DNA of 63,859 nt, counting the filler, from Chrysochromulina tobinii (lineage: Eukaryota): assembly GCA_001275005.1 (NCBI GenBank). It is 9 parts of 9 records of this genome, joined end to end, with 100 filler letters (N's around TTAATTAATTAA, not from the genome) between each part and the next. Parts side by side here need not be neighbours in the genome. Positions count along the whole stretch, not along the records: positions 1 to 15,403 come from JWZX01000001.1; 8 more parts are not named here. One strand, 5' to 3'. This document shows, piece after piece, positions 1,786-56,672 of this stretch. A program made the position numbers and the translations under genes. The notes below the pieces were generated by a model, which did no database searches, was not told the DNA's origin, and was given only the letters and a program-made list of their open reading frames with translations. The stretch's first letter is position 1; each line of letters starts with the position of its first letter.

Positions 1786-3348
1786 TCAAAGCCGACTGGT
1801 GCGCCCTTCCGCACCGATGAACGCCGAGCGCTCGCCGAGCGCTTCCAGTGCGCGCTGTGCGGCGCGTTCGCCAGTCTCCATCGCCCCATGCACGCAAGGG
1901 TTGATGCCCTCGTGGCACGCCTCCCCTGCAAAGAAGATGGCGCCGTGTGCGGCGAGGCCGAGGGCGGACCTGTGGGGAGACCAAGGCGCCGTAGTGAGCA
2001 CTTGCATGCAGGGCCAAGGCGCGTGCGCGGCGAGGCCGAGGGCGGACCGCTGGCCGGCGGCGCCGAGTGTCGGATGGCTGTAGGCGCCGTATGTGCGTGG
2101 GTGAGCATTCCAATCTTTGACGAGGAAGCCGTCGCACGCGCTGCTCGCTGGCCTCGGCTCCGCGGCCGTGCCAAACATGGCGTCGAGCTGCGTCAACATG
2201 AGGCGAGCGATCTCAGCATGTGGCACTCAGTGGCACTCAGTGGCACTCAGTGGCAAGCAATCAGTGGCAATCACCTGCGTCAACATGAGGCGAGCGATCT
2301 CAGCGTGTGGGAGCTTGGCCACGCGCTCAGCGCGCGCGCCCGCGACGAAGCCGACCATCGTGTACGGCGGCGGCGCGTCCTCGCGCATCAGCTCGGCGGC
2401 GGGCGAGAGCCACACCTCAGGCAAGAAGGCGTCGGCGCACACGGCGTCGTAAAAGTCGAGCGGCCAGAAGCGGCGCGTCAGCCGCACGATCACCTTGAGC
2501 GCCGAGCCCATCCGAAGCTTGCTGATGGCGGTCGAGTGCACTACCGGCAGCGGCGGCTCAAAGTGCACCTCCCCACGCTGCAAGGCGGCCAACGGAACGG
2601 TGACGATCACCGCGCGGGCCCGTACAGTCCGTCCGCTGCTGTCAACGAGCTCCACGCTGCACGCGTCGTCTGCGGCTGTTCCCCTCCCGGCATCCACGCA
2701 GACGCGCTCGACGGGCCAATTGGTCCGGAGAGGCAAGCCGCGTGCGAGCGTCTCCATGGCGTCCTGCAGGCAGGCTCCGCGCATCACGATGTACTTCTCG
2801 CCGTAGCTCCAGCTCCGCTGCTCGTGCATGACCTCATGCAAGCCCACATCACTCATGTCTGCGCCGTAATCGTTGCCAAAGATAGCATCGGCGAGGTCAA
2901 GCACGCGAGAGCTCAGGCCACAGCCCGCAAAATACTGCAGGAGCGACTGCTCGGGCACCGCGGCAGCGTCGAGCGCCTCGAGCTTCTCGAAGCTCTCGTG
3001 CATCAATGCAACATCGTCCAGGTTGTCTGCCGTCTCAGCCGGCAGCAGCGTGGCCTCCTTTCCAAAGAAATAGTAGTTGGGCCACTCAAGCTCAACAAGG
3101 CTGACGTTCGCACGGCCGACGAGCCCATCCCGCACCAGATCGAGCAGTCTGTTATTCTTCTCGCCATGGATGAACTCGGGGCCGAGCTCGAGGGGCCACT
3201 CTGCGAGAGTGGCATCGTGCAGCACGCGTCCGCCAACTTTGTCAGACGCCTCCAACACGACCACGCGCAGACCGCGCTCGTGCAACGCGCGCGCGGCCGA
3301 TAGGCCGCTTGCGCCGGCGCCGATCACCGCGACGTCGACATCCTCCAT
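1786..3348 (-). CDS. Flavin-containing amine oxidase; exons 3348-2275, 2187-2048, 1969-1786
   Basis: GAGASG FAD motif, GGRV, ELGPEFIHG and C-terminal FFAGEA...VHGAMETG. Removing GT-AG introns 2188-2274 and 1970-2047 restores the frame and removes duplicated peptides. Confidence 0.9.
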
Positions 3349-15403: not shown

Positions 15404-15503
15404 NNNNNNNNNNNNNNNNNNNNNNNNNNNNNNNNNNNNNNNNNNNNTTAATTAATTAANNNNNNNNNNNNNNNNNNNNNNNNNNNNNNNNNNNNNNNNN
15501 NNN
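15404..15503. other. Artificial contig linker
   Basis: N44-TTAATTAATTAA-N44. Identical linkers at 25622-25721, 28222-28321, 31371-31470, 33497-33596, 48213-48312, 57044-57143 and 60319-60418. Confidence 0.97.
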
Positions 15504-40550: not shown

Positions 40551-43500
40551 TCAAATCGGCAGGAACGCCAAAGGACGATGGCCGCTCTCGGACGACGAAG
40601 GCCTCTTCATCGCGAGCGCTCGCGCGACCAAGGCTGCGACCGGCCCAGGCGACTTTGGCTTCTCCTTTGCTGCGGGACTCGCATTGGTATTGAGGGCGCC
40701 CAGCATTCGCCTCGGCTGCCCGGGCGTAGGTCGGGACGCCCCAGACTGCAGGTGCGGCTCAAGGTGCTTCGACGGAGTGCTCCGCTCAGGGCTCCTGCCT
40801 CCCTCAATCATTTCGGGCTCGCCTGATGCGCCCCATCGAATCTCCTCCGAATGAGATCGAATCTCCTCCGAATGAGATCGAATCTCCTCCGAATGGGCAC
40901 TGAGATCGATGGCGCTGCTGCCTGCAGAGTGCTCGTGTGCTCCACGCGCCTGGAGAGCAGTCTCGGTCCTCCCCAGCTTCTCCTGCATGCAATGCAATGA
41001 GACACACTCAGTGGATCTCGAGACGCACTTGCATGCAATGCAATCAGACGCACTCAGTGGATCTCGAGAGGCACTTGTACGCAATGCAATCAGAGGGTTT
41101 TCGAGAGGCACCTGCATCCTCGCCAGCTCATCGGCTGCCATGCGCAAATTCTCCTGTAGCCTCGCCACCTCGGCTGCATGCACCTGGGCAGCCCGGCTCG
41201 CCTCCGTCGCCAGCGTCGCGCTCACGTCGTCATTATGTAGCACGCATGCCCGCAGTGCCGCCGCCTCCTCCCTCAGCACCCCCAGCGCGCCTGCATGCTC
41301 CTCCCTAATTCTGCCGAGCGCTTTCGTATGCTCGTCGCGCAGCGCCCCAATTGCCCTCGTATGCTCTGCCTCCGCCACCTTCTGTGCCAGCCGCAGTGAC
41401 GCGAGCTCATTCAGCAAGGTCGACTCACCCGTCGCGTCCTCGAGCCGTCCTTTTTCTTGCTTCACGAGCTCGAGCTGCGCCTCGGCCGCCGCCCGAGTGA
41501 GCTTCGTCAATTGGAGCCGGAGCGAGCTCACCTCCGCCTTCGCCTTGTCAAGAGTGGCCGCCTCCGCCTCCACCGTCTCCCCGAGGCTCAAAAAGAGCTC
41601 CTCCTCGAGCTCCGCCGCCTTCGCCTCGCTCGAGCGCGCCCTCTTCTCAAGCTCCGCCACCTTGGCCTCGCTGACCCGTGCCTGCGCCTGCGCCCGCGCC
41701 TCGACCTCTGCCACCCGCGCGATCGCTGCCTCCACCTCCGCTGCCTTAGTCTCAAGTACCGCCTGCATCTCCGCCTGCATCTCCGCCCTCTTTGCCGCCA
41801 GCGCCGCCTCGTGCACGGCGCGCGCCTCCGCCTTCGCCGCGGCCAGCTTCTCACCCGCCTCCTTCATCACCGTCCGCACGGCAAAAACTGCCTCCTCCAT
41901 CGCCGCTGCCGCCTCAGCCTTGTCGAGTGCCCGAGCTCGCTGTTCCACAGCAAGCGCCTCCGCCAGCTTCTCTGCAGCCCTCGCGCGCTCCTCCGCCCGT
42001 ATCGCACCCTCTTTCTCCTGCTCCCTCACCTCATTCCTTCGCCGCTCCTCCGCGAGCACCTTCGCTACCGCCGTCTCGATCGCCGCCTCGCGGTCGTGGG
42101 CCGCTCGCTCCGCTGCCACCTCCTCCGCCCTTGTATGCTCAGCGTCGGCGAACTCAAGCGCCGCGGCAACGTCCGCCGCATGTGCTTCGGCTGTCTGCAG
42201 GGCGTCCGCCTTCGCCTTCGCCTCGACTTGCGCCGCCTTGTGCGCCGCGGCGGCCTCCATTTCCACAAGCGTGGCGGCGCGTGCGGCGCGTGCGGCCGCC
42301 GCCGCAGAGGTCGCGACCACTTCTTCTCGCAACGCCTTCGCCACCGCTCGCTCTGCCGCGACGGCCTCCTCCAATGCCGCTGCCGACCTCGCGGCCGCCG
42401 CAGTCAGGGCCGTTGCCAGCGTCGCCTCGTGTGCAGCACGTGCCTCCGCCAGCGCTGCCGCTAGCTGCTCGGCCGCCTCCGCCGCCATCTCCACCCGTAC
42501 GGCTTTGACCGCCTCCGCTAGCTGCTCGGCCGCCGCCTCTGCTGCTTTGCGCGCCACCTCTGCTGCCTGCGCCTCCCTCGCCTCCGTCTCTGCCTGTTTG
42601 ACCGCCTCCGCTGCCGCCCAGGCAGTCTCCTCCGCCTGCACCGCGCGCGTGCTCAGAGCATCGATTTGCTCCGCCATCAGCGTTCGGAACAGAGACGCTC
42701 GGCGCTCGTGATGTGCGCCCTCCTCCCTCACCGCCGCCTGCACCGCCGCCTGCACCGCCACCTCCACCCGCGCAGCCGCGCTCGCAAGCTCCCTCGCCAT
42801 TTCCTGCGCGTGCTCAGCGTCGGCATCCGCCAGCGCCGCTCGCAGCGCCGCACAGTCCACCGACGCTCGCGCGTCGAGGTCGACGAGCGCCTCGTGCAGG
42901 CAATCGTCTGGGGTCGTGAAGAGCCGATGAGGTGCGTCCGTACAAAGAAGCTGCGAGTCCCAGTGCGGCTTCAGGGGCGGCACTGCCGATCGCGGACTTG
43001 GCGGAGGGCCGATGGTGCTCACCGCCTCACCGAGCGCCGCCCCGAGCGCTTCTTGCGCACCCCGATCCACCGGCCGGTCTGGCTGCTGCAACGTTTGGTT
43101 GTGCACCCTCTGGGCCCGGGCCGCGAACAGAAGTGTGCTCAGGGTCTCGGCCTTGCATGCGGCGAGCGGGCTCACGTTTGCGACCAGCCACGTGCGAGCA
43201 CTCCCCCCCAGAGAGTCTCTCAGTAGCTGCGTGAGTTTCGAGTCGCGGTAAGGTACGTGTGGCCGCCCCGCATTGAGTGCCTGGATCATTCCCGAACGCG
43301 TTCAGAGTCAGACAGAGTCAATCGTACGCAAGTCGAGGCAATTCGAGAGGCAATCATCACGGTGCCACACCCCTCTCGCCAGATCACCTACCTGGATCAC
43401 TCCTGACAGTGCCGAGAGGCTTCGGTTGATGGAACAAGCCTCATCCAGCAGCAAGCTCTCATCCTCGGCGCAGGCCGGCATACCCAACTCCGAGCTCGAC

Positions 43501-54049: not shown

Positions 54050-56672
54050 TCAGCTTAGGTCGTACGGGTTGGTGTGGCTGCTGCCGGCAGCGGCCGGAGC
54101 CGGCGGCTTGCTACGCCGCACACGCTCGGCGGCGAGCTTTCCTTGGCAATTCGCTCCGTAGTAGCCTCCACCGCTTTGGCCGGGCACTCTCCCATGCCGG
54201 TCTGGCCGCGCGTTCGCTTGCGTTCGGGGCAGATGGCCAGCGTCGTTGGTGGACCACGGGACGTCGTTGGGCGCGTAGGGCTTCGGCGGGAGCGAGTAGG
54301 GCACTGGTACCACGAGCGCGCCGGCGAGCTGTGAATGGGCCAGCTGTGAATGGTCCAGCTGTGAATGGGTCGCTGCACTGGTAAAGCCGGCCGCGCCGCC
54401 CAGCACGACGCCCGCGTGGGCCTCGGTGCGAGTGCTGCCGCTCGTGCTGCCGCTCGTGCTGCCGCTCACGCCGTGCAGGTCGGGTGCGCAGAGCGGCACT
54501 TGCGGCGTGGCCATGAGGAGCACACCTGTGGGGAAGGGCGAGACGCCGTGGTGAGCACTTGCATGCTGGAGCTCGTGCGGCGTGGCCAGGAGCACACCGA
54601 GCTCGTAGCTCATCAGCGGGTCATTAAGGGGTCATTAAGGGGTCATTAAGGGGTCATTAAGGGGTCATCAGGTGATTCGTGGCTCACCGAGCTCGTAGCT
54701 CTTGATGTAGAGTTGGGTCTCTTTCTTCTCAAGCTTGCCCCAAGCCGCCTGCGACAAGTTGTGCGAGGCGAGGATGGCCCAAGGCAGGGTGCGATCGGCG
54801 GCGTAGCGGCAGTAGGTCTTGATGTGAGGCACCGCGAGGGCGCGCCCGCTCGCGCCGCCATACGCGCCATCGCCGCCATCCCAGGTGCATAAGCGGCCAC
54901 GTGGCAAACCCATCTTAGGCAACTCGGCGAATCTTGCCTAAAATGGGGAGAGAGAAGGCGCCGTGGTGAGCACGTGCATGCAAGGGCAGGTCATCAGATG
55001 CAATCGGCAACTCGGCGAATCTTGCCTGCAGCCGCTCGACATTCTGTACCTCACACGGGATGCTGTTGCCCGCGTACCAGCCTTCCAGACTCTCGCCCAC
55101 CTGCGCCTGCGTCGGGAAGACGACCTCGATCGCAGACGGCGTTGGGCGCGTACCTGTGGGGAGAGGAGGGCGCCGTGGTGATCACTTGCATGCACCTCGA
55201 TCGCAGACGGCGTTGGGCGCGTACCACAAAAGGAGCGCACGAGCTCAACGAGCCATTCTGGTTTGGTGCCGGGCGACGAGAGCGATGAGAACTGCAGCAC
55301 GAGCGGCGCGCTGTGGAACTTGGCCTCGGACGGCGCCGCGTCTAGGATGGTCCGTACCTGCGTTGGACGGGCGAGTGGGGCGCATGCGATGAGAGAGGTC
55401 ATCAGTGGTCATCAGCGGTCATCAGGATGGTCCGTCCCTGCGTGAGGTCCCAGCGGCAGCATGCAATCAGCATGCACTTAGCACGCCCTCAGCATGCAAT
55501 CAGCATGCCCTCAGCACGCAATCACCGTACCTGCATGTGGCCCCAACGGCCGAGCTTCTCGCCCGTGTGCCGCCCAGGCACCGCGCCGAGGAGCCGTGCG
55601 CGGCATGCAGTGTAGTCGTAGCATCGAATCCATCTCAGATCGAGCGCCGCCCATCGAGCTTGCTCAGCCGCACTCTGCGGCTGCCACTGCGGGGGGGGAT
55701 GCATGCCGAGCTCTCGCACCTGCGGGGGAGGATGCATGCATGCATCAGGAGGATGCATGCCAAGCTCACGTGCACGCATGCATCTACCGTGAGGTGCATG
55801 CATGCATCAGGATGCCGAGCTCACGCACCTCCCGGTAGTACCCGTCGAGGTCTTCCCCAAAGGCGCCGATCGGAGCGGCCGCACTGCCCGCCGTGGCCGG
55901 CGCACGCGCCGCGCGCGGGAAGCTCTCCGTCCAAATCCCATTCGTCTTGTTCCACACGTCAGCAAAGATGAAGTTACCCGAGAGCACGGCCACTGTGAGC
56001 TCGGCTGGGCGTACGATGAATAGGGCCTTGGAGTGATGCGTGCCGAAGCGCTCGCACGGTGGCTGCAGGAACACGAATCGGCCCGGCTCGGCGGCAGCGC
56101 ACTGTGACTGCGGCGGCATGCCATCACCATGCACTACGACCACACGCGGCACGGTGCGCACCGCGGGGCACTCATGCACGACAAAGTCGAGCTGCGGGCG
56201 CAGGTGTCGATCCACAGACCGATGGTCAGCAGCAGATGAGCAGAGGAGCCAGAGGGCTGGTGATCGGGAGCCAGCGACGCACGTCGATCATGAAGTTGAC
56301 GATGTGGAGCTCCGAACATCCACACAGTGAGTCGGCCGACAGCAGGTCAGTGATCGACAGCGTCCCTTCGTTGCACCGGCGAGCGACCAATCCAGCCTCG
56401 ATCCATGCCCGGTGCAGCGTGCTGAGATGAAAGCCGAGCTTCGGGCCAGGGAGGGCAGTGCTCCCAGACATGCCGGCTGCGTCATGCATCTTGGAGCGCT
56501 TAGCTGGCGGCTCAGAAGCGGGCTGCGCATCTTCGTCAGTGGAGCCGTCGAGAGTGTCTGCGAGCCACGCCGCGCAGGCAACAAGGTCGGCGCCGTGCGT
56601 CGCCATGGCTGAGCGCACGCGTTCGGCCGGGAAGCCCATCGCAAGCAAGGACGCCTCAGTCTCTGCTTCCAT
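54050..56672 (-). CDS. TDP1: UBA + tyrosyl-DNA phosphodiesterase 1; exons 56672-56283, 56191-55829, 55719-55531, 55357-55225, 55153-55026, 54937-54688, 54525-54050
   Basis: The spliced product reads in frame with [46 protein letters not shown] and PVPY.LPP.PY. N-terminal LLAMGF...AAWL is UBA-like. Confidence 0.92.

Follow-up and report, generated by a model that had tools for sequence, protein, structure and literature searches.

The gene for a flavin amine oxidase (PF01593 by Pfam; closest named relative, a Prymnesium parvum protein with 67% identity) in Chrysochromulina tobinii contains a stretch of 78 nt that opens with a near-copy of the exon downstream of it. The question that this locus raises is whether the stretch is coding sequence or an intron and, if an intron, where its two splice sites came from. 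We addressed it in a window of 63,859 nt, the whole stretch of DNA analyzed here, in which nine contigs are joined through eight N spacers (for example, 15404-15503), with no linkage across the N runs.

Read on the minus strand from 2047 to 1970, the segment starts with GT and ends with CAG, so that the start, end and 78-nt length quoted in the preliminary description stand, as does its remark that the unspliced frame is free of stops and reads RSALGLAAH twice, which the translation bears out. On the plus strand, 1944-1970 and 2022-2048 form a 27-nt direct repeat with one mismatch at a spacing of 78 nt; 26 nt of the repeat lie inside the intron, its longest exact part is 22 nt, and the mismatch falls on a synonymous third position. 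In 200 rounds of codon shuffling, the gene region never yielded a 26-nt repeat with at most one mismatch and copies 40-120 nt apart, in support of the claim that the segment carries a copy of the downstream exon. Exactly where the duplicate stops, the exon has CACGGCGCC, the same letters that close the core at this locus, and the exon upstream of the intron ends with CG. The core contains CTCAC (A at 1995), which, judging by the branch consensus, we take to be branch-point-like. The predicted fold of the intron is no better than that of shuffled sequences (z 0.37).

Table 1 Features of the amine oxidase gene and of the related TDP1 introns in the window (positions in the whole window)
Feature	Position	Strand	Basis and remarks
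Amine oxidase exon 1 (PF01593)	2275..3348	-	sequence, Pfam, homologs
87-nt mirror-type intron	2188..2274	-	repeat-rich donor piece, then 36-nt copy of upstream exon giving AG; in-frame stop
Amine oxidase exon 2	2048..2187	-	sequence, RNA contigs
78-nt GT-AG spliceosomal intron, phase 2	1970..2047	-	sequence; RNA contigs; DNA runs
26-nt copy of downstream exon, source of GT donor	2022..2047	-	direct repeat, 1 mismatch
11-nt filler, similar to the intron's own core end plus tail	2011..2021	-	nominal p=0.023; sole such case among 24 fillers
24-nt family core, opening with palindrome TGCATGCA	1987..2010	-	sequence comparison
Pyrimidine tail ending CCCCACAG, source of acceptor	1970..1986	-	last 8 nt identical in 37/48 copies among the matches listed
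Exon 3 start, source of the 26-nt duplicate	1944..1969	-	direct repeat; retained in X13 and X14 RNA contigs
Amine oxidase exon 3, up to stop codon	1786..1969	-	sequence, Pfam, homolog alignment
TDP1 family copy, 71 nt, predicted intron	55154..55224	-	GT donor from perfect ~31-nt copy of downstream exon
TDP1 family copy, 88 nt, predicted intron	54938..55025	-	exon copy of 20 nt gives GC donor; ends with TAG acceptor
TDP1 family copy, 72 nt, predicted intron	54526..54597	-	immediately follows donor-type piece copying end of upstream exon

We compared assembled contigs from RNA runs X11, X12, X13 and X14 and DNA runs X1, X2, X3 and X5, the RNA and DNA runs possibly coming from different strains; runs X17-X20 contain next to none of the sequence words of the locus. 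The junction 2048^1969, proposed earlier as the mark of splicing in RNA, is found in contigs of three of the four RNA runs (X12, X13 and X14; RNA contig depths 2.4, 6.1 and 48.9), where exactly 78 nt are skipped, and in none of the four DNA runs; X11 has no contig across the site. Among the DNA contigs, the acceptor-side junction is present in X1, X2, X3 and X5 and the donor side in X1 only, with coverage gaps in X3 and X5 (no piece over 2013-2226) and the intron not spanned by any single contig; no empty allele of the 78-nt site was found among the four DNA runs. The RNA joint is ambiguous over 22 nt and compatible with GT-AG, as for a U2-type spliceosomal intron; in X13 and X14 its plus strand can be read as CT..AC. 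For about 400 nt, the contigs of these two runs are identical to the window, and at 1948 they retain the letter of the exon, as predicted by GT-AG splicing. The intron's letter is found at the mismatch position in X12, in a second allele in X2 and in the near-identical record P0001, so that the duplication was likely perfect at birth. An attempt to derive DNA copy number from summed contig depth over the cassette (more than 100 times that of the flank) was abandoned, given that this depth measure is no copy number.

The homologs, 30 of 44 of which were aligned, tell the same story: the 26-aa peptide that retention would add is present in none of the 30, in line with the comparison suggested in the preliminary description. 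The motif-to-motif spacing is 52 in the unspliced frame versus 25-27 in 12 of the 13 measurable homologs, the exception being P0021, with a different, glycine-rich insert, and the spliced product, at 466 aa, has the size expected from the homologs (about 460-472 aa). P0001 reads the 78-nt segment with a frameshift and therefore does not keep it as a peptide; records P0054 and P0056 lack both introns and may be transcripts. The P0005 homolog (71% identity) ceases to be similar immediately past GLAAHG, as if a separate intron lay a few codons away from the 78-nt site. That the 78 nt are instead retained as a 26-aa loop, or that the skip in RNA is a repeat assembly artefact, could be argued from the open, in-frame reading of the segment, from the missing joint in X11 and from the origin of all the evidence in contigs; yet the joint recurs in three studies, DNA contigs built in the same way show no skip, the homologs lack the peptide, and the exact repeat of 22 nt is shorter than the words of these contigs, which we take to be 31 letters, and thus too short for collapse. 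We give this alternative hardly any credence and are practically certain that 1970-2047 is a real intron belonging to a family with a shared acceptor.

The neighboring 87-nt intron is a different matter. The RNA contig X12 and the DNA contig X1 skip it, and record P0001 lacks it, but contig skips are unreliable here because the exact repeat is 30 nt; polymorphism of this intron as deduced from the X1 skip was accordingly rejected, and its absence in X1 and P0001 may be either polymorphism or collapse of the 30-nt exact repeat. ORF-style records of the amine oxidase gene mostly end earlier, inside this intron.

The window holds four copies of the family, one in the amine oxidase gene and three in the TDP1 gene (Pfam-confirmed), where the core and acceptor of the 78-nt intron recur. 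The amine oxidase insertion had been held to be independent of those in TDP1, and this is upheld: TDP1 lies on a different N-separated piece, and the duplicated sequences differ. The term cassette, also used earlier, fits only in part. Similarity among the family introns is confined to the 3' 40-50 nt, which are common to the copies, whereas the 5' part arises anew at every site.

Several other intron-like stretches of the window deserve mention. On the minus strand of TDP1, 54526-54686 is a putative compound intron, in which a donor piece containing 11-nt tandem repeats is followed by a copy of the joined exon-exon junction and then by the acceptor cassette; it has the look of two insertions at one site. 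Two more probable introns of this gene, at approximately 55721-55829 and 55358-55530 (minus strand), have exon-copy repeats and fillers rich in TGCATGCA or in TGATTGC/TGATGAC. Positions 1-60 on the plus strand are the end of a probable intron, with 10-nt TGATTGCC-like repeats ending in CATCAG, ahead of a long frame that presumably encodes tetratricopeptide-like repeats; the CATCAG-type end is a second acceptor type, also seen in loci L078, L058 and L031. An intron-like stretch in a kinesin gene (40970-41100, minus strand) consists of tandem 46-nt units that hold the first 12 nt of the core.

Beyond the window, the 24-nt core was found at at least 133 metagenome loci, some of them redundant, and the core pattern had no matches in viral contigs. 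Among the 157 cores in the matches listed, 130 are unique, and 102 combine a pyrimidine tail with an acceptor and sufficient flank, 83 of these being unique. The downstream exon of the host gene is copied upstream of the core in 51 of the 83 unique acceptor cassettes among the matches listed, versus 3 of 2000 in the control. Across these 51 copies, again among the matches listed, the duplication is 10-44 nt long (median 27) and begins with GT in 45, GC in 5 and CT in 1, and the intron measures 65-95 nt in 50; the intron lengths leave remainders of 0, 1 and 2 modulo 3 in 16, 16 and 19 cases, such that family lengths are frame-random and the length of 3n at the amine oxidase intron is incidental. 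The duplicates differ from their originals at 54 positions in 1235 nt, and 20 of 45 are perfect (matches listed), that is, the duplications are young; together with the 63- and 65-nt indels in the orthologous pair L006/L106, their youth points to recent activity. The longer the duplication, the shorter the remainder tends to be (rho -0.67 among the matches listed), an anticorrelation that fits a length constraint and could partly reflect decay.

Thirty-seven acceptor ends were found without a seed pattern, 17 of which had the core end, and 14 of these 17 copies start 21-31 nt upstream of it, at or near the TGCATGCA palindrome; at the other side, 37 of 48 copies among the matches listed end with CCCCACAG. 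A longer shared 5' arm is present in 14 of 130 cores among the matches listed. The two ends do not form terminal inverted repeats, the 5' ends being site-specific and the 3' ends CCCCACAG. Where duplicate and family sequence meet, they overlap by a mean of 3.1 nt in 12 clean cases among the matches listed (null 1.1, P 0.013), or by 2.5 nt in the 11 cases remaining without the tandem copy L112 (P 0.002-0.012 by rough nulls; matches listed); this microhomology test rests on a selected quarter of the junctions, because 36 of 48 among the matches listed carry 1-71 nt of filler unaccounted for by the single reference arm used. Inverted local templates do not account for the fillers, fitting 1 of 24.

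Not all copies take the form of the 78-nt intron. A flanking repeat with a score of at least 11 accompanies 94 of the 125 cores with flanks among the matches listed, 31 being without one; among the 94, also from the matches listed, 60 fit a sense intron, 9 fit only an antisense intron, and 25 fit neither. In mirror forms, the donor belongs to the family piece and the AG to a copy of the upstream exon (L073, L076, L102 and L130; nested in L090). Cores also lie between direct repeats without an acceptor tail (L089, L105, L106 and L133) or in tandem arrays (L046 and L126), and 3'-truncated and both-ends-ragged forms are present. In L050 (19-42), L106 and L107, the core is antisense to the gene or stands between repeats without an acceptor, and the reverse strand of the core offers a donor-like GTGAG. 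L116 has several cores in both orientations, and its flanks agree with the loose ends of X11 and X13 RNA contigs; it was considered as a master copy or non-coding RNA and set aside, no clear master having been found.

Nine orthologous pairs were aligned, and in three of them (L077/L131, L075/L111 and L011/L096) the acceptor tail clearly differs and the exons are close. The 76-nt intron of L022, which lies in a gene unrelated to that of L075/L111 and with a frame that is acetyltransferase-like by the look of its sequence, matches the whole L075/L111 intron; 23 of the first 24 nt are identical, and the L022 intron includes 15 nt that otherwise match only the exon of L075/L111. This single case is most simply read as the copying of a hybrid intron from the gene of its birth (L075/L111) into another (L022). 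Loci L108 and L117 are identical over 350 nt up to the cassette and unrelated beyond it, a pattern of misassembly or of recombination between introns.

How, then, did the intron arise? We lean towards birth by fill-in of a staggered break, a sister intron having provided the copied piece. The target would be duplicated by a pair of nicks spaced 10-44 nt, or by backward slippage to the same effect; an existing family intron, as DNA or RNA, would template the filler, guided by short homologies; and in coding exons the survivors would be those products in which the duplicate starts with GT or GC and the filler ends with AG, or the mirror form, because only in these would splicing restore the reading frame exactly. 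Each new chimeric intron could itself be used as a template, such that the family would spread without a fixed mobile unit. A direct repeat at the intron boundary and filler, signs of break repair, are both found here, and end joining of breaks with overhangs can yield tandem duplications (PMC5730883). The mirror donor types, the splice-less insertions, the swapped tails and the re-copied intron favor copying from sister introns over a discrete transposon. Counting against fill-in of a break are the 32 of 83 acceptor cassettes among the matches listed that show no duplication at a score of at least 10, the preferred ends of the cassette, which are element-like, and the choice of the same template so often, which is not obviously expected of ordinary break repair.

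Target-primed reverse transcription leaves variable duplications, 5' truncation with 2-4 nt of overlap, and filler bases. The main rival, which we consider rather unlikely, has a LINE-type or other reverse transcriptase prime at a nick on excised-intron RNA or on a short SINE-like RNA; the AG end would then be exact, the 5' side truncated and the target duplication long and variable. Most of its predictions are common to it and to staggered-break repair. Variable duplication with 5' truncation is indeed observed, though with a clustered 5' boundary, and the exact ends coincide with intron ends, AG in the acceptor type and GT in the donor type, but selection alone also predicts exact ends. A poly(A) tail is lacking, some forms are 3'-truncated or ragged at both ends, eight loci gave no Rfam match, and neither a reverse transcriptase nor a transposase was found in 44 of the 83 window ORFs of at least 190 aa (Pfam, E 1e-6). 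Non-LTR introners do exist, at about 5% of classified families (PMC12130899), and count in favor of this rival.

A discrete non-autonomous DNA transposon, that is, a MITE-like introner bringing the acceptor and recruiting the donor from the target duplication, would follow the splice-site logic of the Symbiodinium and Polarella classes 4 and 5 (10.1101/2020.10.14.339549, in part), would account for the preferred 5' boundary at the palindrome and would agree with the introners in many Chrysochromulina MAGs in the supplement of PMC9860276, as far as the accessible part goes. We nevertheless find it improbable: the spread of duplication lengths, 10-44 nt among the matches listed rather than one fixed value of 3-9 nt, largely refutes it, neither end is an inverted repeat of the other, the intron does not fold better than chance, and a chimeric intron was copied whole with its exon-derived end. 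Still less probable, in our judgment, is plain tandem duplication of the exon with the acceptor end gained later by gene conversion from other introns. Intron gain by such duplication has been demonstrated (PMC3443670, in part), tails differ between strains at orthologous sites, and 5 of 24 fillers resemble decayed exon continuation; but it needs AGGT in the target, whereas the upstream exon here ends with CG and 13 of 51 targets among the matches listed share no base with the acceptor left of GT, and the acceptor-less duplicate would be an unspliced, often frameshifting intermediate.

If the reading that we prefer, repair of a staggered break by copying from a sister intron, is extended to the whole family, introns might beget introns without any transposon: break repair would copy the termini of introns already present, perhaps with excised intron RNA as the source, the target duplicate would give the missing splice site, and the hybrids would become new templates. 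We advance this generalization tentatively; if true, introns would be gained en masse by a route that propagates itself and is distinct from that of introners. The origin of new spliceosomal introns is a long-standing question, most gains being without a traceable source. Each young intron of the family keeps a record of its birth, in that the site-specific exon copy speaks of age and birthplace and the acceptor end is shared. The exon-derived 5' end is a barcode by which parent and daughter introns are traceable across one genome, as with L075 and L022, and this makes the choices between DNA and RNA templating, and between element and repair, directly testable. For annotation, about a third of the family introns are 3n and may be read into protein models, and family repeats can collapse in short-read assemblies. 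The value thus lies in the family; the 78-nt intron itself is one more copy.

Known systems, cited here from parts of the respective texts, resemble this family in some features and differ in others. Described introners have duplications of 3-9 nt (PMC9860276), dinoflagellate introner-like elements have a duplication length fixed per class (10.1101/2020.10.14.339549), and about 72% of introner families are unclassified (PMC12130899; review PMC11282704). In classes 4/5 and 6/8/10 of Symbiodinium and Polarella glacialis (10.1101/2020.10.14.339549), as here, the end of the element serves as the 3' splice site, the start of the duplication functions as 5' splice site, and the mRNA is restored exactly; those classes, however, have fixed duplications of 3-8 nt and, in Symbiodinium, inverted repeats, whereas here the duplications are 10-44 nt without inverted ends and, unlike in the dinoflagellate elements, target-derived sequence makes up between a third and a half of the intron. 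The introners of Chrysochromulina sp. (Gozashti et al. 2022, PMC9860276) share with this family a haptophyte host and the lack of inverted repeats and are, at 70-108 nt, of similar length. The Chrysochromulina family figured there differs in its 4-nt duplication, its own donor and its co-opted acceptor, but the present family may be identical with one of the families of that study. In the part of its supplement covered here, most rows on Chrysochromulina MAG introners give the TSD as '?', and the C. tobinii assembly was found in the list of surveyed genomes only. The C. tobinii genome paper (PMC4580454) mentions introns once in the part consulted, and a literature search limited to accessible texts found no description of long, variable duplications in haptophyte introns, though one may exist. 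The introns of Daphnia pulex attributed to staggered double-strand breaks (PMC4202315) have in common with those described here a direct repeat of exon sequence where the intron ends, recurrent rounds at a single site and strain polymorphism, but their repeats are 4-12 nt and their fillers mostly of unknown, unrelated source, whereas here the repeats are longer and a filler shared by the family brings the acceptor. The models of tandem genomic duplication and intron transposition (PMC3443670) also have a duplicated exon that gives a splice site and one intron copied from another gene, respectively; in the former, both sites come from duplicated AGGT without a foreign insert, and the latter leaves no long duplication. 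In its many similar introns at unrelated sites, the present family agrees with introners in the broad sense; it fails MITE-type tests, is not filed as a SINE and behaves as would an introner with a donor taken from the duplication.
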